Of a stretch of 64,000 bases of DNA, positions 5,071 through 37,460 are shown one piece after another; the first letter of the stretch is position 1, and each line of letters starts with the position of its first letter. Under the pieces are notes generated by a model that saw only the letters and a list, made by a program, of their open reading frames with translations, made no database searches and had not been told where the DNA came from. Both the position numbers and the translations under genes were made by a program. The stretch is from Candidatus Doudnabacteria bacterium (GTDB lineage Bacteria; Patescibacteriota; JAQUNI01): the NCBI GenBank assembly GCA_041644975.1, contig JBAZQX010000002.1, positions 84,603-148,602 on the forward strand, read 5' to 3'.

Positions 5071-5115
5071 ATAGATAAATATAGTAAGTAGCGTGGTGGG
5101 GTAAAAATTGCTATA
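5071..5115 (+). repeat. repeat family B (GC-rich palindromic element), truncated copy
   Basis: atatagtaagtagcgtggtggggtaaaaattgctatactgaag. Retains the ends (atatagtgagtagc ... ggggtggggtaaaat) but lacks the central palindrome. Confidence 0.6.
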
Positions 5116-6457: not shown

Positions 6458-6473
6458 AATAATGAATGGATTT

Positions 6474-27271: not shown

Positions 27272-30200
27272 ATGAAAAAAATAAAGGGATTGCCAATCTT
27301 TGCCCACGCACCAGCCCCACACCTTTTTAAAAGGTGGGGGACTGTATGGGGTTTCACATTTTTTTGTGCGGCACTGGTTTTATTTTTAGTGAAGATTCCT
27401 TCTGCCCTTGCTTATGGCTCTTATGCAGTGAGTTTTGGAAGTTACGCAGAAGGGATGCTTTCGGGGTTGGATCAAGAAACAATTGAATTTTACAGCGATA
27501 TTCCCGCAGGGGTAGATAAAGTAATTTTAAGCGCGGTGGGCAACGATTGCGTGCGGCGCAGTATTGATTTGTGCGGCGGGAGTCAAGAACGTTGCGAAGT
27601 AAGCGCGACTCCGGGTTCGCGAATCTATTTCAATGTGAGTTTTGATATTACGCCTTGCGGTTCCAGCCCTTCTTTTTGGTATCGGACTTATGTTTTGAAA
27701 TCGGAAGGGAGCGGCAGTGCCGACAGCGGTTTCTCCGCGAGAGCAAATGGGGAGCAGTGCAGCGCAAACAGCGAATGTCAGTCTGGATATTGCAACAATG
27801 GTTATTGTTGCACAGGGAATGTCTGTTGCGCGACTGACAGCGATTGTGCGAGCGATGCCTATTGCGGCTCTGATTATATTTGTTATTTTCAAGAAAATGA
27901 TGGTGCTTCCTGCAACCGTGCAAGGCAGTGCAAGGGCGGTTATTGTACAAATAACAAATGTAGTTCAAGTGCCTCTACTTGCGGCGATTATTATTGCGAT
28001 ACAGGAGAGACTTGCGCGAGTTGCCCGATGGATTGTGGAATCTGTAAAAAAGCGGATGGCGATTCTTGCGACTATGCTTCTCTATGCCAAGGTGGCTATT
28101 GTAATGGAGGGCGATGCGGTTCCAGCCCTTATTATTGCGGCAATGCTTATTGCGATGCGGGCGAAACCTGTGCTAATTGCGTTCGCGACTGCGGCGCTTG
28201 CCCGCGGCAAAATGGCGCCGTTTGCGATTACGATGATGATTGCGCAAGTAAACACTGCGTCCACGGCAAGTGTCGGGCAGGTGAGACTTATTGCGGGGAC
28301 AGCGAATGTGATGCGGCGGAAACCTGCGAGACTTGCGCTCGCGACTGCGGCGCCTGCGACAGTGCGGCTTGCACCAAAGATTCAGATTGTGCAGGCGGGC
28401 ATTGTGTGCACAAGAAGTGCCGTAATGAAACAACTTACTGCGGCGATGACGTTTGCGACTCGGGCGAGACTTGCGCAAAGTGCCAGCAGGATTGCTGCGG
28501 CTCGGATTTGCGTGTTTCTTTTTCTACGATGCGCTTGCAGTTGAAACCAGGGGACACGGGTAACTTAGAGATTAATTTTAGAAATGTAGCAAAATCTACT
28601 GCTGATAATGTTTATTGGAGCATCCTTGTGGATAAAGACGAATTGCTTGTTATTTCTCCTAAAGATAAAAATATTGGCACAGTGAAAGGCTCTAGTGAGT
28701 TATCCAAAGAAATAAAGATTACGGCGAAGTCTGCAGGCACGGCTTATTTGGCAATACATATTCGGGGCAATAATTTTGGCAGTATTCTGAAATTCGTCCA
28801 AGTGAATATTGAGGGAGGACTCGCGCTTGATGTGCCGGAGTCTATTTTTTTATTGCCTCAAGAAGAAAATGATTTCGGCGTTTTTGTGATTAACCAAGGC
28901 AATGAGTCAGCGCAAGTAAAGGGTTTAACCTTGGAGAGTCTGAATCCGAACGTTGTGGAGATTAAAGAGGGAGGAATAATGGAAGTGAGAGGACAGGGGC
29001 AGGGTATTAAACCAGACCAACTTTTTACTACCGAGAGTGAAGATATTTTGAAAATGATCTCCCCGCGACCGAAAATTCAGGGTCGGGACGCAGGGGAAAC
29101 TGAACTTGTTTTTAAACTTAAGTATTATCTTCCGGGGAGTAATCGCGAGGAAAGTCTAGAAAAGAGGACTAAGGTGAAAGTCGGCGCTACGCGTGGAGGC
29201 AAACAAAGTTTGCTTGATTTGCAAATCATTCCAGCCGGCATTGCTTTGGAAATAGGGGAGGCAAGAGAGTTAAAATTAGTTCTCAAAAACAAAGGCAGTG
29301 AAATCGTTAAGCAAGGTGTGATTAGAATCACTAAATCCAAGATTACCTATTTTGAATCCACCGCGGAGGTGCGCTTCGGTTTTATTGAGCCGGGGCAAGA
29401 AGCGACCGCGAAGATTGACCTTGTCGCCACAGATGAATTCCCGCCGCTTTTAAAGAAACTTGCCAAGGAGGGGGAATTAGCCATTACTGATCCTTTGTCT
29501 TTGGCAGTAGAGTATCAAACCGTGGACGGTCGCAAGTTTCAATTTCAGGACGAGATTAAAGTTTCGTTGGTGGAGAAGCGCGCCCAGTGCAAATCTAATG
29601 ACCCAGCGTGCGTTAGGGCTGTGAATTGTCTGGTAGAACTTTCCAATGCGATGAGCTGCACTCTAGAACTAGCGGATGTGATTCCATATTTAGACAAACC
29701 TGTGGCTGTGGTCCTTGCTACCGCTGATGTGTGTGAAATTGGGCAGAGGAGAGCAGGAGGTGATAGTATTGGTGCGGCGGTCTCGGCGCTTTTGATGGCG
29801 TCGGACGTAGCGGATAATGCCGCGGACGCAGTGCCGGGCGCGGGCAATTTGGCTTCCACTTTTGCGGATATCGTGGAGGGCGCAGCTGATTGCGCCGAAG
29901 GTTTTGTGCATAGCGGGGTGGATCAATATTGCGCCGGCGGCAGTGGCAAGGGTTATACCGGTTGTGCGGAAAATATTTTTAAGACCATTGCGGAGATTTC
30001 TGGTAAAGCGACAGAGCCAGCCGCCGTGCGGAAAATGGTGGTCGCTATGGTAGGCTCGCCCGTCGCCATCGCTGTCGTAGATAGTGAAGGCAAGGTTTTA
30101 ACTCCCCGGGACGGCGTTATTGTTTTACAGCAAGGGGATTTGAAACTCATTCTCATCAAAAATCCGCAGGATTTAATGGGAAGAAGCGTAAATTTTAAAA

Positions 30201-30529
30201 TTATGGGCGAGGATAATGGCAAATACAGTGTGCAGTTAGGTTTGATTGATAATGGTTCTTTAGTCAAAACGCGCGAATTAAAGGACAAAAAGATTAAACA
30301 AGATGAAGAGGTTTTAATTCCTTTGGGTGTCCGCAGTACTTCTAGCGCTCAATTGACCGATCTTTTACTGGGAAAAAGGGAGGTGGCGCGGCTGGGTCAT
30401 AAAGGATTTTTAGATACGATTTTAGACTCCCCGCGTCTATTCAAAAGCCTATTAGCTATTTTTGTTATTTTACTTGGTGGAGCAAGCGCTTTTTGGGTGT
30501 TGCGGAAGATTAAGCAGTCAAAAAGATAA
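27272..30529 (+). CDS. large cysteine-rich surface protein with 4 tandem ~46-aa Cys modules, Ig-like middle region and C-terminal TM anchor
   Basis: 1085 aa with a signal peptide. Four repeats of the form ...DGxSC.....C.GGYC....C......CG..YCD.GETC..C..DCG.C. C-terminal TM (LLAIFVILLGGASAFWVL) followed by RKIKQSKR. The GC-rich, repeat-rich DNA generates many spurious overlapping ORFs. Confidence 0.85.
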   Translation: MKKIKGLPIFAHAPAPHLFKRWGTVWGFTFFCAALVLFLVKIPSALAYGSYAVSFGSYAEGMLSGLDQETIEFYSDIPAGVDKVILSAVGNDCVRRSIDLCGGSQERCEVSATPGSRIYFNVSFDITPCGSSPSFWYRTYVLKSEGSGSADSGFSARANGEQCSANSECQSGYCNNGYCCTGNVCCATDSDCASDAYCGSDYICYFQENDGASCNRARQCKGGYCTNNKCSSSASTCGDYYCDTGETCASCPMDCGICKKADGDSCDYASLCQGGYCNGGRCGSSPYYCGNAYCDAGETCANCVRDCGACPRQNGAVCDYDDDCASKHCVHGKCRAGETYCGDSECDAAETCETCARDCGACDSAACTKDSDCAGGHCVHKKCRNETTYCGDDVCDSGETCAKCQQDCCGSDLRVSFSTMRLQLKPGDTGNLEINFRNVAKSTADNVYWSILVDKDELLVISPKDKNIGTVKGSSELSKEIKITAKSAGTAYLAIHIRGNNFGSILKFVQVNIEGGLALDVPESIFLLPQEENDFGVFVINQGNESAQVKGLTLESLNPNVVEIKEGGIMEVRGQGQGIKPDQLFTTESEDILKMISPRPKIQGRDAGETELVFKLKYYLPGSNREESLEKRTKVKVGATRGGKQSLLDLQIIPAGIALEIGEARELKLVLKNKGSEIVKQGVIRITKSKITYFESTAEVRFGFIEPGQEATAKIDLVATDEFPPLLKKLAKEGELAITDPLSLAVEYQTVDGRKFQFQDEIKVSLVEKRAQCKSNDPACVRAVNCLVELSNAMSCTLELADVIPYLDKPVAVVLATADVCEIGQRRAGGDSIGAAVSALLMASDVADNAADAVPGAGNLASTFADIVEGAADCAEGFVHSGVDQYCAGGSGKGYTGCAENIFKTIAEISGKATEPAAVRKMVVAMVGSPVAIAVVDSEGKVLTPRDGVIVLQQGDLKLILIKNPQDLMGRSVNFKIMGEDNGKYSVQLGLIDNGSLVKTRELKDKKIKQDEEVLIPLGVRSTSSAQLTDLLLGKREVARLGHKGFLDTILDSPRLFKSLLAIFVILLGGASAFWVLRKIKQSKR
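27880..28500 (+). repeat. intragenic tandem repeats (~140 bp x 4) encoding the Cys module in the 27272 gene
   Basis: tattgcgg..attattgcgat.c.gg.ga.acttgcgc.a.ttgc...gattg.gg..c.tg recurs at about 27975, 28130, 28290, 28440. Confidence 0.75.
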
Positions 30530-30540
30530 CCTATTATTCT

Positions 30541-30700
30541 ATAAATAGGACTTCCGCGTTTCATAATAATTAAACTTGGATATTTATTGTCATTCCCATC
30601 CCGTAATGAATACAGGGTAAACTCCAGCGGGAATCCAGGATTAGTGCCTCCGACCTGGATCCCCGATCAGGTCGGGGATGACATGAAACGCGAAAGATCT
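30541..30700 (+). repeat. palindromic intergenic element (related to, or a second type alongside, family E)
   Basis: ccgcgtttcataat ... tgtcattcccatcccg ... cgggaatccagg ... cctggatccccgatcaggtcggggatgacatgaaacgcg. Ends are inverted repeats of cgcgtttcat / atgaaacgcg. Marks the boundary of the GC-richer island. Confidence 0.55.
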
Positions 30701-30880
30701 GATGTTTTTAATTGAAACATTGCATTTTAGGGAAAATGTGCTAAAGTAGTTAGATGTTTTCGGGAAGGAGGGAAACATCAAAAAGTTTTGTTTTCTGTTC
30801 TTTCATAAATAAGAGCCGCAGGGGGCGGAATATTGGGTTAGGCTCTTTTTTTGTTTTTTAGCGAAGGGAGGAATTGTGGT

Positions 30881-32044
30881 ATGGCTCGGAAAGAAGTCAA
30901 TGTGGGTTTAATCGGTTACATGTTTATGGGCAAGGCGCACAGCCACGCTTATCACGATGTAGCCATGTTTTTTAATATGGACGCAAAACCAATAATGAAG
31001 GCGATCTGCGGACGTAATGAAAAAGGCGTGAAAGAGGCATCGGAGAAATTCGGCTGGGAAAGCTATGAGACGGATTGGGAAAAACTGGTGCGGCGCGATG
31101 ATATTGATCTTATTGATATCTGCGCGCCAACCAATATGCATAGGGATATTGCCATTGCCGCGGCGAAAGCGGGAAAACACATTATTTGCGAAAAACCCTT
31201 GGCTATGGATCTAGAAGAAGCGCAGGAAATGTGGGACGCGGTTGATGAAGCGCGCGTGATCAATATGGTCAACTTCAATTATCGTAAAGTTCCGGCAATC
31301 GCGCTTGCAAAAAAGATGATTGACGATGGAAAGCTTGGTAAAATCTATCACTTCCGCAGTGTCTATCTGCAGGACTGGATATTGAGTCCGGATTTCCCAA
31401 TCGTATGGCGTTTGGATAAAAGCGTTGCCGGTTCGGGCTCTCTTGGAGACCTTGGCGCTCATATAGTGGACCTTGCCAGATATCTTGTTGGTGATTTTGA
31501 CCGCGTGGTGGGAATGGAAGAAACCTTTATTAAGGAACGTCCTGTATCCGCAACAGGAATGGATGGTAAGTTATCAGCGACCGCGACGGACAAAAGTGTT
31601 AAGGGTATGGTTACGGTTGACGATGCCACTCTGTTTTTGGCTAGATTTGAAAATGGCGCTGTGGCGACTTTTGAGGCTACAAGGTTTGCCGCTGGAAGGA
31701 AGAATTACAACAGTTTTGAAATCAACGGAGAAAAAGGCAGTATAGTATTCAACCTTGAAAGAATGAACGAGCTGGAATACTACAATGTTGATGATCCTGT
31801 CGGATTGCAGGGATTCAGGACAATTCTGGCAACTGATCCGTCTCATCCGTATATGGGAGCTTGGTGGCCGCCAGCGCATATCATCGGGTATGAGCATACA
31901 TTTATTCACCAGATATATGAGCTGATGCAGGCTATAGCCAGTGGTAAATCGGCATCTCCAGACTTTGAAGACGGCTTGAAATGTCAAAGAGTGTTGGAAG
32001 CTGTGAGCTGTTCAATAGCTGACGATGGATGGGTTTATGTGTAA
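30881..32044 (+). CDS. Gfo/Idh/MocA family NAD(P)-dependent oxidoreductase
   Basis: Start chosen at the ATG after GGGAGG (MARKEVNVGLIGYMFMGKAHSHAY). Rossmann GxGxxG-like segment and the typical Gfo/Idh/MocA C-terminal alpha/beta domain. The ORF track instead starts at an upstream TTG at 30851. Confidence 0.9.
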   Translation: MARKEVNVGLIGYMFMGKAHSHAYHDVAMFFNMDAKPIMKAICGRNEKGVKEASEKFGWESYETDWEKLVRRDDIDLIDICAPTNMHRDIAIAAAKAGKHIICEKPLAMDLEEAQEMWDAVDEARVINMVNFNYRKVPAIALAKKMIDDGKLGKIYHFRSVYLQDWILSPDFPIVWRLDKSVAGSGSLGDLGAHIVDLARYLVGDFDRVVGMEETFIKERPVSATGMDGKLSATATDKSVKGMVTVDDATLFLARFENGAVATFEATRFAAGRKNYNSFEINGEKGSIVFNLERMNELEYYNVDDPVGLQGFRTILATDPSHPYMGAWWPPAHIIGYEHTFIHQIYELMQAIASGKSASPDFEDGLKCQRVLEAVSCSIADDGWVYV

Positions 32045-32097
32045 TTTATTGGGATACTGAAAAGACAAGAAAGGAGAAAAGAAGGGTGGGAGGAAAG

Positions 32098-32373
32098 ATG
32101 GGCTTGGAAAAAACATACAAAATAATTTTTAAATCAGTTGATCCAGATAAAACAGTTGCCACGGTATCTACTATTAAAAGAATTTTGAAGTCTCTATCAT
32201 TGAAAGAGGTTAAAGATGCTTTTGATAATTGCCGTCAAACCGGTCAGCCACAAACCTTGCAAGGGGGGTTAACCGAGGACGAGGTCTTGCAGTTCATAGA
32301 GGAGATCCAAACAAATTTAAAGGATAAAGGTCTAGACTCGGCTAGCGTTGATTTTGAGGCTGAAAACCTTTGA
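32098..32373 (+). CDS. stand-alone ribosomal protein L7/L12 C-terminal-domain-like protein
   Basis: 91 aa from the ATG after GGGAGG. TYKIIFKSVDPDKTVATVSTIKRILKSLSLKEVKDAF...LTEDEVLQFIEEIQTNLKDKG...VDFEA aligns position-by-position with the L7/L12 CTD (FDVILK...KVAVIKAVR..TGLGLKEAKDLV...[22 protein letters not shown]). Confidence 0.6.
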   Translation: MGLEKTYKIIFKSVDPDKTVATVSTIKRILKSLSLKEVKDAFDNCRQTGQPQTLQGGLTEDEVLQFIEEIQTNLKDKGLDSASVDFEAENL

Positions 32374-32550
32374 CAAACATCAAGTTTTGGTCTTAGATGA
32401 GGCTGTATAAGTATGGGCTGGGTTTAATGAATTAGTCTTTGTTAAAAATCAACTTAAAGGAGAGGAAGGTAGCAGGTCGGTTCGGGTTCTGTTTTTTAAG
32501 CAAAAAACCGGACGGATTAAGACCGTCCAAAGAAGAAGGAGAAAAGAAAG

Positions 32551-33567
32551 ATGGCAAGAAAAGTGACTCTTTTTACAGGACAATGGGCGGATTTGCCCCT
32601 AGAAAAGCTTGCAATCATGGCAAAAAAGTTTGGCTATGATGGGCTTGAACTTGCTTGTTGGGGCGACCATTTTGACGTAAATGCCGCGTTGAAGAATGAG
32701 AATTACTGCAGAGACAGGTATTCAATTCTGCGCAATCAGGGACTTGGAGTTTGGGTAATCAGCAACCACCTTGCTGGACAGGCGGTTTGCGACAACATTG
32801 ATCAAAGGCATAAAAGTATACTTCCTCCTCATATATGGGGAGATGGAGATCCTGAAGGTGTAAGACAGAGGGCTGCAGAGGAAATGAAAAATACAGCGAG
32901 AGCCGCCGCAAGACTTGCTGAAGCAGCCGGACATAAGATTGATGTTTGTGGTTTTACAGGATCAAGCATCTGGCATTTGCTATATTCTTTCCCGCCAGTA
33001 ACACCAGACATGATTGACACTGGATATAAAGACTTTGCAGACAGATGGAATCCGATTCTTGACGTTTTTGACGAGGTTGGCGTAAAATTCGCTCTGGAGG
33101 CGCACCCAACGGAGATAGCATTTGACGCATGTTCAGCAGCGAGAGCAGTTGAGGCATTAGGTGGACGCAAAGCTTTCGGCTTCAATTATGATCCAAGCCA
33201 TCTTGGTTATCAGGGCGTTGATTATGTCGAATTTATCCGCATGTTTGGGGATCGCATATATCACGTTCACATGAAAGATGTTGGCTGGTCATCAGTACCA
33301 AAGCTATCAGGCGTATTTGGTGGTCATCTGAATTTCGGTGACGTAAATCGTTACTGGGATTTCCGTTCACTAGGTCGTGGAAACATAGATTTTGAAGAAA
33401 TTATCAGGATGCTCAATAGAGTCAACTATCAAGGTCCATTGAGTGTTGAATGGGAAGATTCAGGTATGGATCGTGAGCATGGCGCCGTTGAAGCCTGCGA
33501 GTTTGTGAAGTCATTAGATTTTCCGCCTTCAGCTACAGCGTTTGATGCCGCGTTTGAGAAAAAGTAA
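32551..33567 (+). CDS. sugar phosphate isomerase/epimerase (xylose isomerase-like TIM barrel) family protein
   Basis: 338 aa. [23 protein letters not shown]... and HVHMKD are typical of AP-endonuclease-2/xylose-isomerase-like TIM barrels. A clean terminator follows. Confidence 0.9.
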
Positions 33568-33580
33568 TTTTTTATTGATA

Positions 33581-33612
33581 CCCTGCAATCGCTTGATTGC
33601 AGGTTTTTTATT
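33581..33612 (+). terminator. rho-independent terminator after the sugar-phosphate isomerase gene
   Basis: ccctgcaatcgcttgattgcagg + tttttta. Perfect 8-bp stem. Confidence 0.8.
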
Positions 33613-33694
33613 CTTTGAAACTATGTTAAAATAGATCTAAGGTTATAAGCAAGCCGTCTACAAAAATAAAGATCAAAAAATAACTTAAAAAAAT

Positions 33695-36067
33695 ATGCCT
33701 AAGAAAAAATTATTACTAGGGATTTTGATTCCAGTCGGCGTTTTGATTTTAATCGTTGTCGGCTTGTTGGTCTGGGGTTTTAGGGTACGTAAAAGCTTTT
33801 CCGCGAGGCAAAATATTACTGTTGATTTGCCGCAAGAAATGGATTACCAAAATTTAAATCCGAGCGACCAAAAGAAACTTTTACAGGATATTAAAAAGAG
33901 CCTTCCAAATAAGATTGTTCCGAATAGAGAAGGGCAGCCGGTGCGGATTGTTCAGGATGTGGTCTTGAGCCAAAATCAAAAAGCGTTGCCTGCGGGATTA
34001 AAACCGCTTAGCGGCGATAAACTTCTGGAGAGCACACCTGCTCAAACTCTTCCTCTTTCCAGCCAACCTCAAGCCGCGCCCGAGAAAACAGATGTTAAGG
34101 GAGCTTCTCGCGCGAAACAAGTTCAAGGGATGAAGATAGTTGCTAATCAGAGCGGCTCGGAACAGGAAGAAGAAATTAACTGGCCGGCGCTTGCCTATTC
34201 TTATAATGTGCCGCCGGGCGGTCAGGATAAGGGCGCGGAGTATAAGGAAATGGTGAAGATTATGGAGCTCACTAAAAAATATTATCCCACACTGGTCAAA
34301 TATTATGGCGAGCCTTTTAATGTTAAAAATCGGTTTTTGATGTTTGTTTATGACCCCGCGGCTGAATTTTCCGTCTTTCTTCCCCAATACGATACAATTA
34401 TCTTAGCAAGTTCCAGACCTTGGGAAGTGATTCCCGCTTTTGTCGCCGCGTTTCAAAGCAATTTTTACTCTGTGATTCCGGAAACTTGGAGAGACGGCAT
34501 GGTTTATGCCGTAGCGCAACTCGCGATTCGGCAATTTCCAGAGGATTGGCCTCGCGATCCGATGATGGATTTAATCGTTCAGGGTGTGGAAGGCAGTTAT
34601 GAAAAATATAATGTGGCGGCCTATCCCATCTGCGGCGCAAAGACCATTTATCTTAATGATTTCCCTGATTTTGCTTGGAAACGTCCTTTTTTAGCAGCCG
34701 CGGCGTGGCTTAAAATTTATCAATACGACCCAGAGTTTTTTCGCCGAATGAATATTGAGCTTTATGGCAATTCCCTGGATAGCGAAATCTGGCAGGATGA
34801 AATGAAGGTCTTTCTACGCACCAAGAATATTTTTTATCCCGAGATTGAAAAGTTTACACCGGACTCTTGGTATAATAATCAGCATGTTTTACATCAAACA
34901 CAAACCAATCCCATTGTTTTTTTAATGTGGGCGCTTTTTGGCAGCACCTTTGTGGCGGAGGATAATGGGATTCATCTGTATGAATTCAAATCCGTGAATG
35001 CCGGGCAAGGGACGCGTTTTGAACCCCGCCAGGATCGCTCGCATACGCTTCAAATTTACAATGACCGTGTTTTATTAAAAACTATTAGCCGCAATACGGA
35101 CGCGCGCGGTCAGATTGACATTCCTCTCGCGGAAGCAGGAACTTTAAGTAACGGTCGCTATGAAGTGAGATATAGTGAGGAAATCATCCCTATTAACTAT
35201 GCCTACTTTACGGAAAAACCGTATGCCTTATATGGAAGCGTGGATAACTTTGGGGAAGGGAAAATTTTAGCTTATGATCAGAACCAAAATCTGTTGGGAG
35301 AGGCGCAGATTTCCGCAGGCGCTTTTCGTTTTGAGAGACACTTTCAGGGCGTGATTAAATTAGATGTTCAAGATTATTTGGGTGATATTCCTTTACATAA
35401 GGAGCTTTCCAAACCCGAAGGTTCATATTATGTCGCCCTCGCTTCGCGCTCCTCCTCTTATGAGCCGGAGGAATCAGGCTCGCGTGGCGCTCCGCCGATT
35501 GGCGAAGGTGAGGCAACCGCGCCGAAGAGCGAGGATACTTCTCCCGCTCTTCGCAATGTAGTGCCTCCAGCGTCGCAGATAGAAGGACTACCGAATACTT
35601 TTATTTCCGACAAGTATAAATTTAAGATTAGTTATCCAGATGATTTTGACGCGACGGATACCACTAAATTACAGGGACCAAACCTGACTCCTGATATTCC
35701 TATCAAAAGCGAACAAGCGGCGCAGTTTATGGAAAAGAATAAGAAAATCGGCGCAAAAGAGGTGGGGATTATTTGGCATTCCAATCCGGATAAATCGTTG
35801 AAAAGTTTTGCTAAATATTATACGTCTATAACAGCAACAGAGGCGCAGTATGGCGCCCTGACCATTAACGGTCGGGAGGTAGTCACCGCGGAATATAAAG
35901 TGACGCCGGGGGTGCCAGGCAATCCAGCCGCGCGGCTCCCCGAGGTGGAAATGAAAAGTTATTTCATAAACCGGGGGACTGATGTTTTTATTTTTGGTTG
36001 CACTCTGGATAAAGAGAGCCAGGATCTGCTCAATAAAATGATTCAGACCTTTGATTTTGTGCAATAA
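33695..36067 (+). CDS. hypothetical large secreted/membrane-anchored protein
   Basis: 790 aa. N-terminal TM (LLLGILIPVGVLILIVVGLLVWGF). No recognisable catalytic motif. Confidence 0.7.
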   Translation: MPKKKLLLGILIPVGVLILIVVGLLVWGFRVRKSFSARQNITVDLPQEMDYQNLNPSDQKKLLQDIKKSLPNKIVPNREGQPVRIVQDVVLSQNQKALPAGLKPLSGDKLLESTPAQTLPLSSQPQAAPEKTDVKGASRAKQVQGMKIVANQSGSEQEEEINWPALAYSYNVPPGGQDKGAEYKEMVKIMELTKKYYPTLVKYYGEPFNVKNRFLMFVYDPAAEFSVFLPQYDTIILASSRPWEVIPAFVAAFQSNFYSVIPETWRDGMVYAVAQLAIRQFPEDWPRDPMMDLIVQGVEGSYEKYNVAAYPICGAKTIYLNDFPDFAWKRPFLAAAAWLKIYQYDPEFFRRMNIELYGNSLDSEIWQDEMKVFLRTKNIFYPEIEKFTPDSWYNNQHVLHQTQTNPIVFLMWALFGSTFVAEDNGIHLYEFKSVNAGQGTRFEPRQDRSHTLQIYNDRVLLKTISRNTDARGQIDIPLAEAGTLSNGRYEVRYSEEIIPINYAYFTEKPYALYGSVDNFGEGKILAYDQNQNLLGEAQISAGAFRFERHFQGVIKLDVQDYLGDIPLHKELSKPEGSYYVALASRSSSYEPEESGSRGAPPIGEGEATAPKSEDTSPALRNVVPPASQIEGLPNTFISDKYKFKISYPDDFDATDTTKLQGPNLTPDIPIKSEQAAQFMEKNKKIGAKEVGIIWHSNPDKSLKSFAKYYTSITATEAQYGALTINGREVVTAEYKVTPGVPGNPAARLPEVEMKSYFINRGTDVFIFGCTLDKESQDLLNKMIQTFDFVQ

Positions 36068-37284: not shown

Positions 37285-37460
37285 GAATAAACCCCGTTAG
37301 ACCCCATTAGAAATTTATTTCTAATGGGGTAAAATAAATCTCGCCTGTTTTGGGCGAGGTTTATTGTTTATACTTCCATTATGGTTTATTCCGTCCAGGA
37401 TAATAACGGAATAGTTTATCCCGTTAGATGTTTGCTATATAACGGGGTTTACCCCTATTT
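37285..37460 (+). repeat. repeat family D (nested palindromes built on ccccgttagaaataaatttctaacgggg), complex copy
   Basis: accccgttagaccccattagaaatttatttctaatggggt ... ctcgcctgttttgggcgag ... agtttatcccgttag ... taacggggtttacccc. Lies between the 37067 gene and the first NUDIX gene. Confidence 0.65.

Follow-up and report, generated by a model that had tools for sequence, protein, structure and literature searches.

In the levoglucosan and 3-keto-glucoside pathways (LgdA/LgdB1/LgdB2), an oxidoreductase of the Gfo/Idh/MocA family oxidises the sugar at C3, and triosephosphate isomerase (TIM) barrels of the PF01261 family carry out the β-elimination and the hydration (PMC10066097; PMC7676230). 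In the dgpA-dgpB-dgpC and carABC operons, the gene between those for the oxidoreductase and the TIM barrel codes for a small β subunit, which is obligatory and gives the active site its shape (PMC8563793). The C-terminal domain (CTD) of the ribosomal stalk protein bL12 (L7/L12) is a common docking site for GTPases (PMC10931766). Here we analyse a stretch of 64,000 nucleotides (the window; contig JBAZQX010000002.1, positions 84,603 to 148,602) from the metagenome-assembled genome of a Candidatus Doudnabacteria bacterium, a member of the Candidate Phyla Radiation (CPR). On its forward strand the window carries an operon of three genes, coding for a NAD(P)-dependent, levoglucosan-dehydrogenase-like sugar dehydrogenase of the Gfo/Idh/MocA family (30881..32044, 387 aa, NCBI MFA4880268.1), a stand-alone paralogue of the bL12 CTD (32098..32373, 91 aa, acidic with a pI of 4.8) and a metal-dependent, xylose-isomerase-like (AP_endonuc_2) TIM barrel of the 2ZDS family (32551..33567, 338 aa, NCBI MFA4880270.1). 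An earlier note, made from the DNA letters alone, had read the three genes in the same way, and these identities hold. We read the locus tentatively, at somewhat less than an even chance, as a long-resident CPR operon in which an old pair of sugar enzymes of non-CPR origin has been joined by a small protein derived from rplL, the latter serving as an accessory partner of the TIM barrel.

The small protein matches the Pfam family Ribosomal_L12 (PF00542) with E = 0.006 and 17.3 bits, which is below the gathering cut-off of 25.9 bits, and its relatives either score 17.1 and 19.1 bits or do not match. When the PDB was searched by sequence, both the single protein and the profile found bL12 only at E of about 1, which is unusable alone. 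An alignment of the family with the bL12-CTD alignment by hhalign covers residues 7-79 with a probability of 97.3% (P = 1.9e-11). In an exhaustive search of 1.8 billion representative proteins, the family profile found the family itself and three outside matches only, two of which (E = 5e-5 and 8e-5) are proteins with three genuine Ribosomal_L12 domains apiece. The third, a repeat protein of 2,460 aa (P0006, E = 1.9e-18), matches in 20 short stretches, the best of them at profile positions 28-45, and was taken as spurious. Judged by these sequence comparisons, the 91-aa protein is genuinely, if distantly, homologous to the CTD of bL12. It gives no match to the N-terminal dimerisation and L10-binding domain (PF16320), its sequence beginning with β1 of the CTD-like fold, and since it lacks this domain it cannot be a component of the stalk. 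Both halves of the earlier description, a likeness to the L7/L12 CTD and the loss of the dimerisation part, have thus been borne out.

A model of the protein, calculated with AlphaFold (AF2) from an alignment of 7 sequences, is compact (pLDDT 78) and has the topology β-α-α-β-α-β. The top matches of Foldseek in the PDB are ClpS and bL12-CTD structures only: ClpS superposes with TM scores of 0.69-0.76 and a root mean square deviation of 2.5-2.9 Å at 8-12% identity, bL12 with a TMt of about 0.69 at 18-20% identity. ClpS and the bL12 CTD share one fold (the 'ClpS-like' fold of SCOP), so the likeness of fold cannot discriminate between them. Potentially, the protein could be an adaptor for N-degrons or a protease, of the ClpS type, and not a derivative of bL12; the best superpositions of the better model are those on ClpS, and the length agrees with that of the ClpS core. 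However, the identity to ClpS (8-12%) is lower than that to the bL12 CTD (18-26%), none of the members matches Pfam ClpS (PF02617) at E ≤ 1 while Ribosomal_L12 is a recurrent sub-threshold match, the matches of the profile in the whole library are bL12-CTD domains, and in one lineage the gene adjoins rplL, as described below. Because of this sequence and genomic evidence we favour bL12 and consider a ClpS-like adaptor very improbable.

Next, we looked at the distribution of the family and at the context of its genes. The family comprises six clusters at 90% identity among 5.8 billion proteins, all of them on CPR-like contigs. Neither word-indexed searches nor the exhaustive profile search of the 1.8 billion proteins, nor searches of GTDB genomes and JGI metagenomes, raised the number of clusters above six; the species genomes of GTDB contain no member, and the scan of JGI added none. 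In every context seen, the gene that directly follows the small gene codes for an AP_endonuc_2 TIM barrel. Three different genes are found upstream of the small gene (oxidoreductase, insertion sequence (IS) transposase and rplL), and the TIM barrels downstream belong to two subfamilies that are only 22% identical. The order oxidoreductase, small gene, TIM barrel occurs in the window and on the contigs L001 and L002, and the short contigs L003 and L011 show part of it. On contig L010 (111-935) the place of the oxidoreductase is taken by an IS transposase of the rve/InsO type, whose closest named relative is in Candidatus Gribaldobacteria; there, the spacer between the small gene and the TIM gene is about 40 nt long and has no hairpin.

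The most divergent member of the family (P0009, 34% identity) is found in the order rplJ, rplL, small gene, TIM barrel on the contigs L004-L007. On L004 (6261-9110), the genes that come after rplL are the small gene and the TIM barrel and not rpoB; this rplL has both Pfam domains, is therefore complete, and coexists with the small paralogue beside it. The TIM barrel of L004 is 22% identical to that of the window and belongs to a different large family, with 63-73% identity to proteins of Verrucomicrobiota and Omnitrophota. For both types of TIM barrel, the nearest homologues outside the CPR were examined for small partners upstream, and none was found. Since the truncated paralogue on L004 sits where a tandem duplication would leave it, the small family most probably arose by a partial tandem duplication of rplL. 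Given that the homology has been established independently, a chance adjacency to rplL (of the order of 1 in 1000 genes) is very unlikely. A search of the literature on stand-alone bacterial bL12-CTD paralogues returned nothing relevant.

The open reading frame (ORF) of 91 aa might have no function of its own, either because a duplicated piece of rplL is decaying there or because the ORF has been over-called. In favour of this, the family is tiny, all of its Pfam scores are below the threshold, and the ratio of non-synonymous to synonymous divergence (dN/dS, or ω) reaches 0.67-0.92 in some of the close pairs. On the other hand, the ORF is intact and has a strong and correctly spaced Shine-Dalgarno (SD) box in all six clusters, including the member at 34% identity. 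At a dS of about 1, ω is 0.19-0.27, that is, the gene is under purifying selection; moreover, the C-terminal half is nearly invariant, and as few as 7 sequences were enough for AF2 to arrive at a compact fold. We therefore consider a functionless relic improbable.

The conservation pattern also bears on a possible role in translation. The αB motif of the small protein, LSLKEVKD, mirrors LGLKEAKD of bL12. The residues with which E. coli bL12 docks GTPases are V66, I69, K70, R73, L80 and E82 (numbering after Helgstrand 2007 and Kothe 2004). In the hhalign alignment, the family has V or I at V66, V, I or T at I69, K, R or Y at R73, L at L80 and E, D or K at E82; K70 is replaced by S or T and G79 by S or P in all members. 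The best-conserved part of the family is the nearly invariant β2-αC-β3 region (QGGLTEDEVLQFIEE...LD.AS) and not the GTPase-docking helices, and the factor-binding half, in which P0009 has insertions, is the least conserved.

The main rival of our reading is that the free bL12 CTD binds translational GTPases (EF-Tu, EF-G, IF2, RF3) or the base of the stalk as a decoy or modulator, and that it lies next to the TIM barrel by a historical accident, namely the place at which rplL happened to be duplicated. This would agree with its homology to a GTPase docking domain, with the closeness of the two αB motifs, with the conservative retention of V66, I69, R73, L80 and E82 in the lineage of the window, with an acidity like that of bL12 and with the position beside rplL on L004. 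However, the exchanges at K70 and G79 are found throughout the family, and the half that would have to bind the factors is the one that has been least conserved. Furthermore, the lineage of the window has lost the link to rplL and has kept the link to the TIM barrel through rearrangements and a replacement of the TIM gene, and a general function in translation would call for a family much less rare than this one. We consider a role in translation unlikely, and the relic and the ClpS-like adaptor less likely still.

We now turn to the two enzymes on either side of the small gene. The oxidoreductase has both Gfo/Idh/MocA domains, the N-terminal Rossmann domain and the C-terminal α/β domain, above the Pfam thresholds (PF01408 with 89 bits, PF22725 with 106 bits and PF02894 with 77 bits), and the EKP motif (ICEKPLA) is visible in its translation. 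It aligns over its full length with the levoglucosan dehydrogenase (LGDH) model of NCBIfam (LevoglcsnDh, NF052479) with 459.8 bits, under the equivalog cut-off of 650, and its closest PDB structures are 4H3V from Kribbella flavida (about 2e-130), followed by LGDH 6A3F (3.5e-112). The TIM barrel matches PF01261 above the threshold (129.9 bits) and has no NCBIfam equivalog match. Its closest PDB structure is 2ZDS from Streptomyces coelicolor (1.4e-125, about 63% identity), with which the metal-ligand motifs E-HP, DPSH, H-V and VEWED are aligned and conserved, and it is homologous over its full length to the 2-hydroxy-3-keto-glucal hydratase of A. tumefaciens, 8RO4 (1.4e-42, about 30% identity). 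By analogy with the levoglucosan and 3-keto-glucoside pathways, we infer the same chemistry here: the LGDH-like dehydrogenase would oxidise a pyranoside or an anhydro-sugar, most likely at C3, and the TIM barrel would then perform the β-elimination and/or the hydration of the 3-keto intermediate.

In a scan of the GTDB species genomes, the 80 best homologues of the TIM barrel (65-75% identity) all come from non-CPR phyla (Rhodothermales, Poribacteria, Latescibacterota, Gemmatimonadota, Bacteroidota, Verrucomicrobiota, Armatimonadota, Chloroflexota and Planctomycetota), and none comes from Patescibacteria. A Gfo/Idh/MocA gene lies at most 4 kb from the TIM homologue in 52 of these 80 genomes, mostly directly upstream. 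The best-matching pairs of oxidoreductase and TIM barrel are those of three Latescibacterota, where an LGDH-like oxidoreductase (57-64% identity) is found 76-91 nt upstream of the TIM gene. A cassette of these two genes is widespread, and its nearest relatives are outside the CPR. No relative of the small protein was detected beside the 80 TIM homologues, where the gaps would not accommodate an ORF of 91 aa. Since the nearest relatives of both enzymes, with 57-75% identity, are non-CPR proteins, both are probably of foreign, non-CPR ancestry. The transfer would be an old and ameliorated one, because it has left no compositional trace and because the locus is common to related strains.

The same module occupies the same locus on three related metagenome contigs (L001, L002 and L003). 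When the window is compared with L001, the oxidoreductase, the small gene and the genes on either side all show a dS of about 0.2, and the TIM gene one of 1.7; towards its close relatives, the TIM gene shows a dS of 1.6-1.7 and a dN/dS of 0.07-0.08, and dN/dS of the oxidoreductase is 0.12-0.15. The sliding nucleotide identity to L001 is 92-96% up to position 32519, falls to 72-82% across the TIM gene and to 54% at its terminator, and is 91-95% again from 33720. The trough corresponds exactly to the TIM gene (32520-33720 in the window, 4780-6060 on L001), and L002 carries a third TIM allele. The TIM gene alone has been replaced, through recombination with a diverged allele between strains, and therefore the three genes do not have a single common history. 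The gene upstream of the operon (27272-30529) codes for a secreted or anchored protein of 1085 aa with four cysteine-rich repeats of about 156 nt (CGD..CD.GE.C..C..DCG.C) and without a Pfam match. This gene is missing in L001 and present in L002, for which reason we take its product for a variable surface protein.

The earlier note had seen in the three genes a horizontally acquired island, visibly richer in GC than its neighbours and bounded by a palindrome and a terminator. Our calculations do not support the difference in composition. GC content is 0.460 for the oxidoreductase, 0.384 for the small gene and 0.451 for the TIM gene, and 0.472 and 0.447 for the flanking genes; the island as a whole has 0.443, as compared to 0.451 in the 5 kb upstream, 0.427 in the 5 kb downstream and a mean of 0.410 (standard deviation 0.034) in the window. 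As many as 15.5% of the windows of equal length reach or exceed the GC content of the island, and the small gene is below the mean of the window. The tetranucleotide deviation of the island is matched by 10.7% of windows, and the codon-usage distances rank 14 and 16 among 34 genes, so that no anomaly is seen in any of the three measures. The window has no tRNA, and no integrase flanks the module in it. What remains of horizontal acquisition is the probable foreign ancestry of the enzymes, TIM barrel and oxidoreductase both being closest to non-CPR phyla; a compositionally distinct and bounded island is not supported. The rest of the window is typical of CPR, with large secreted proteins of unknown function, a P-type ATPase, NUDIX proteins, Rpe and glycosyltransferases.

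The palindrome at the upstream edge does exist. Nested inverted repeats at approximately 30548-30700 fold with -52.1 kcal/mol, as compared to -38±4 for shuffled sequences (z = -3.3; none of 200 shuffles). It is part of an element of 185 nt outside the operon (30530..30714), preceded by the stop codon of the 1085-aa gene and followed by the leader of the operon. Exactly 30530-30714 is missing in L002, where the flanks join seamlessly and the whole module is present; the element is therefore an independent 185-nt indel and not the border of an island. It occurs in a single copy in the window and its core has no exact match in 92 further loci, which speaks against a repeated mobile element; it has no Rfam match, and no clear target-site duplication is visible. 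Its cores (GTCATTCCC...GGGAATCCAGG / CCTGGATCCCCGATCAGGTCGGGGATGAC) look like the widespread repeats of the REP or MITE type (repetitive extragenic palindromes, miniature inverted-repeat transposable elements).

The intergenic regions of the window hold other repeats as well. There are two families of repeated palindromes, AAAAAATCGCCnnnnGGCGATTTTTT, which resembles a bidirectional terminator, and CCCCGTTAGAAATAAATTTCTAACGGGG, which recurs at the end of contig L001; taken together, they are found at 6470, 6926, 8941, 16365, 18845 and 21464, and also at 37298, 48559, 50242, 60568 and 60924. In addition, modules of about 50-110 nt are repeated at 5079, 7936, 8720, 10983, 17780 and 18728, each with a palindrome CCACGTCGCTCGCGAGCGACGTGG and, after it, GGGGTAAAAT..TGATAAACT. 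Several genes may have such a module upstream as a common promoter or operator cassette.

While the composition of the three genes is ordinary, their translation signals are not. SD cores precede the oxidoreductase (GGGAGG, 30866-30871), the small gene (GGGAGG, 32088-32093) and the TIM gene (AAGGAG, 32536-32541). On a list of 49 candidate genes in the window, an SD core of at least 5 nt is found for 3 of the 3 operon genes and for 5 of the 46 others (Fisher p = 0.003, significant for so small a set), and the starts of most other genes are preceded by A-rich leaders; in this respect the earlier note was right. The same holds for the distant contig L004, which is likewise poor in SD boxes: even rplJ and rplL are without them there, whereas they precede the small paralogue (AAGGAGGG, TTG start) and the TIM gene (AAGGAG). 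The SD boxes would reflect a way of expressing this pair of genes that has been conserved although the genome is otherwise poor in SD boxes. For the small gene, a start at 32098 and a product of 91 aa are supported by the SD at 32088-32093 and by all orthologues, which corrects the public annotation (MFA4880269.1) of a hypothetical protein of 114 aa that starts with an ATG at 32029 and overlaps the oxidoreductase.

A recent, compositionally distinct island of three genes, bounded by the palindrome and the terminator and carrying its own SD signals, could still be argued for from the genuine enrichment in SD boxes, the best matches of both enzymes outside the CPR and the mobile-looking palindrome at the 5' edge. 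However, there is no anomaly in GC content, tetranucleotides or codon usage, the flanks are equally rich in GC, and the palindrome is absent from L002 in spite of the module being present. The small gene is specific to CPR and was not imported, the three genes differ in their history of divergence, and the small gene and the TIM gene have SD boxes in the other context of L004, too. Since the same locus is occupied in related strains that have diverged to a dS of 0.2-0.6, the module is not a recent island, and this model is essentially refuted.

The operon begins with a leader (30715..30880, forward strand) that is conserved in L001 and L002 and contains a promoter-like element, two hairpins and an SD. 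The promoter-like element consists of TTGCAT (30720-25) and TAAAGT (30742-47) with a spacer of 16 nt. The first hairpin (30753-30779) has an SD-like loop (GGAAGGAGGG); the second (AGAGCC/GGCTCT, 30812-30846) resembles a terminator, with a T-run to 30859 that ends about 7 nt before the SD at 30866-30871. In the minimum free energy fold, the T-run and CUCU alternatively pair with the SD and sequester it (z = -1.9, which is weak). This arrangement suggests an attenuation-type control of the operon. The intrinsic terminator at the end of the operon (33582..33610, forward strand) is, as first described, a perfect one: a stem-loop at 33582-33603, with a stem of 9 bp (5 GC pairs) and a loop of 4 nt, followed by a T-run.

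A second leader occupies the spacer between the small gene and the TIM gene (32374..32550, forward strand). It contains the SD-like GGAGAGGAAGGT (about 32459-32470), a T-run, an A-run, a hairpin formed by GGACGG (32510-15) and CCGTCC (32523-28), and the SD of the TIM gene. The hairpin and the motifs around it are conserved in L001, L002 and L003 and also in the distant L004 (7955-8069), so that both lineages have in common an SD-like GGA(A/G)GGT, a T-run, an A-run, a hairpin GACGG/CCGTC, CAAA and an SD, although the flanking proteins are only 34% (small protein) and 22% (TIM barrel) identical between them. According to RNAalifold, CCGTCC can pair with the upstream GGA.GGT instead. The single-sequence fold of the spacer is not significant (z = -0.5), and it is the conservation across lineages alone that makes it notable. 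The hairpin may be a cis-regulatory or processing element. No Rfam family matches the window at the gathering threshold, and in the E-value mode 30500-32600 yields matches at chance level only. Read on the minus strand, 32452-32550 looks like an intrinsic terminator.

What, then, does the small protein do? We infer that it is an accessory partner of the adjoining TIM-barrel enzyme, an unproven role that the position of the small subunit in dgpA-dgpB-dgpC and carABC brings to mind by analogy. A lineage-specific paralogue of 10 kDa would have lost the dimerisation and L10-binding domain, diverged on its factor-binding face and been co-opted as a non-catalytic subunit, stabiliser or specificity factor of the TIM barrel. 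A bolder idea is that in CPR bacteria the stalk domain has been exapted as an obligate or regulatory partner of metal-dependent TIM-barrel 3-keto-sugar lyases or hydratases, and thus as a small β subunit invented independently of that in the C-glycoside deglycosidases, or that it links the expression or activity of a scavenged sugar pathway to the pool of translational GTPases. The conserved hairpin leader of the TIM gene might then belong to this control; we would give this idea only a small chance.

Several observations weigh against a partner of the TIM barrel and against the wider reading of the operon. The TIM homologues of other phyla (65-75% identity) have no such partner, and 2ZDS was solved alone, which means that the enzyme is not intrinsically dependent on a partner. 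The swap of the TIM gene between close strains (dS 1.7) left the small gene in place (dS 0.2), which disfavours a tight co-adaptation of the two. The evidence from adjacency comes from two deeply separated lineages only, and between close strains the constraint on the small gene looks looser (ω of 0.3-0.9, a noisy estimate from 91 codons). As for the sugar pathway, there is no transporter or kinase near the operon in the window, and the oxidoreductase misses the NCBIfam cut-off for LGDH. Finally, the old horizontal transfer is deduced from the taxonomy of best hits and not from a phylogeny.

The enzyme pair itself is ordinary; what is new is a stand-alone bL12-CTD paralogue, its probable birth beside rplL and its fixed association with a TIM barrel. 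The family would be a natural example of a domain of a ribosomal protein that was duplicated, lost its anchor to the ribosome and was kept under selection in a metabolic operon, with one lineage still showing the presumed site of birth directly after rplL. If the protein is indeed a partner of the TIM barrel, it would represent a second and unrelated solution to the architecture of oxidoreductase, small subunit and TIM barrel, and would offer a way to study how CPR bacteria, with their reduced genomes, make foreign sugar enzymes their own. Should it bind translation factors instead, it would be a free modulator derived from the stalk domain. The locus also documents a gene-sized allele replacement and SD-specific expression in an SD-poor CPR genome, besides the correction of an annotation from 114 to 91 aa.

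Compared with the bL12 CTD (PF00542), the 91-aa protein has the same β-α-α-β-α-β fold, the profile homology of 97% including the LxLKExKD helix and the acidity, and on L004 its gene directly follows rplL. It differs in that the N-terminal domain and the hinge are missing, in its score below the Pfam threshold and in the replacement of K70 and G79. The family has motifs of its own (SVNPDK, GLTEDEVL and LDxxS) and longer helices with an insert of 4-5 residues. The genomic place differs as well: in the window the gene lies between two sugar enzymes, while on L004 it is a second gene that follows a complete rplL.

With DgpA/DgpB/DgpC (CarA/CarC/CarB; PMC8563793) the operon shares the order of a Gfo/Idh/MocA oxidoreductase, a small protein and a xylose-isomerase-like TIM barrel. 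DgpB and CarC are β-sandwiches of 15-20 kDa, whereas the small protein here is predicted to be an α/β protein with three helices; we therefore rejected a homology between them, and the likeness is an analogy only. The TIM barrel of the window does not belong to the α branch of the C-glycoside deglycosidases (CGD) but to the branch of 2ZDS and AtHYD, and a complex between the small protein and the TIM barrel is a feature of the CGD.

The levoglucosan and 3-keto-glucoside systems are similar in the full-length alignment of the oxidoreductase to LGDH and in the TIM barrel, which falls into the size class of LgdB2 and LgdB3 (about 325-340 aa). The levoglucosan pathway differs in having an eliminase of the LgdB1 type (about 275 aa), LgdC and an ABC transporter, none of which is present here. 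2ZDS and 4H3V, the solved structures nearest to the TIM barrel and the oxidoreductase, respectively, are uncharacterised proteins from structural genomics. A reuse of the bL12 CTD away from the ribosome is also seen in the two nearest matches of the family profile in the whole library, a Ser/Thr kinase with three Ribosomal_L12 domains (P0007) and a protein with a triple repeat (P0008). In those proteins, however, the domains are near-canonical (133-215 bits in Pfam) and fused in tandem, while the 91-aa family consists of a single, highly diverged domain that is linked to a TIM barrel.

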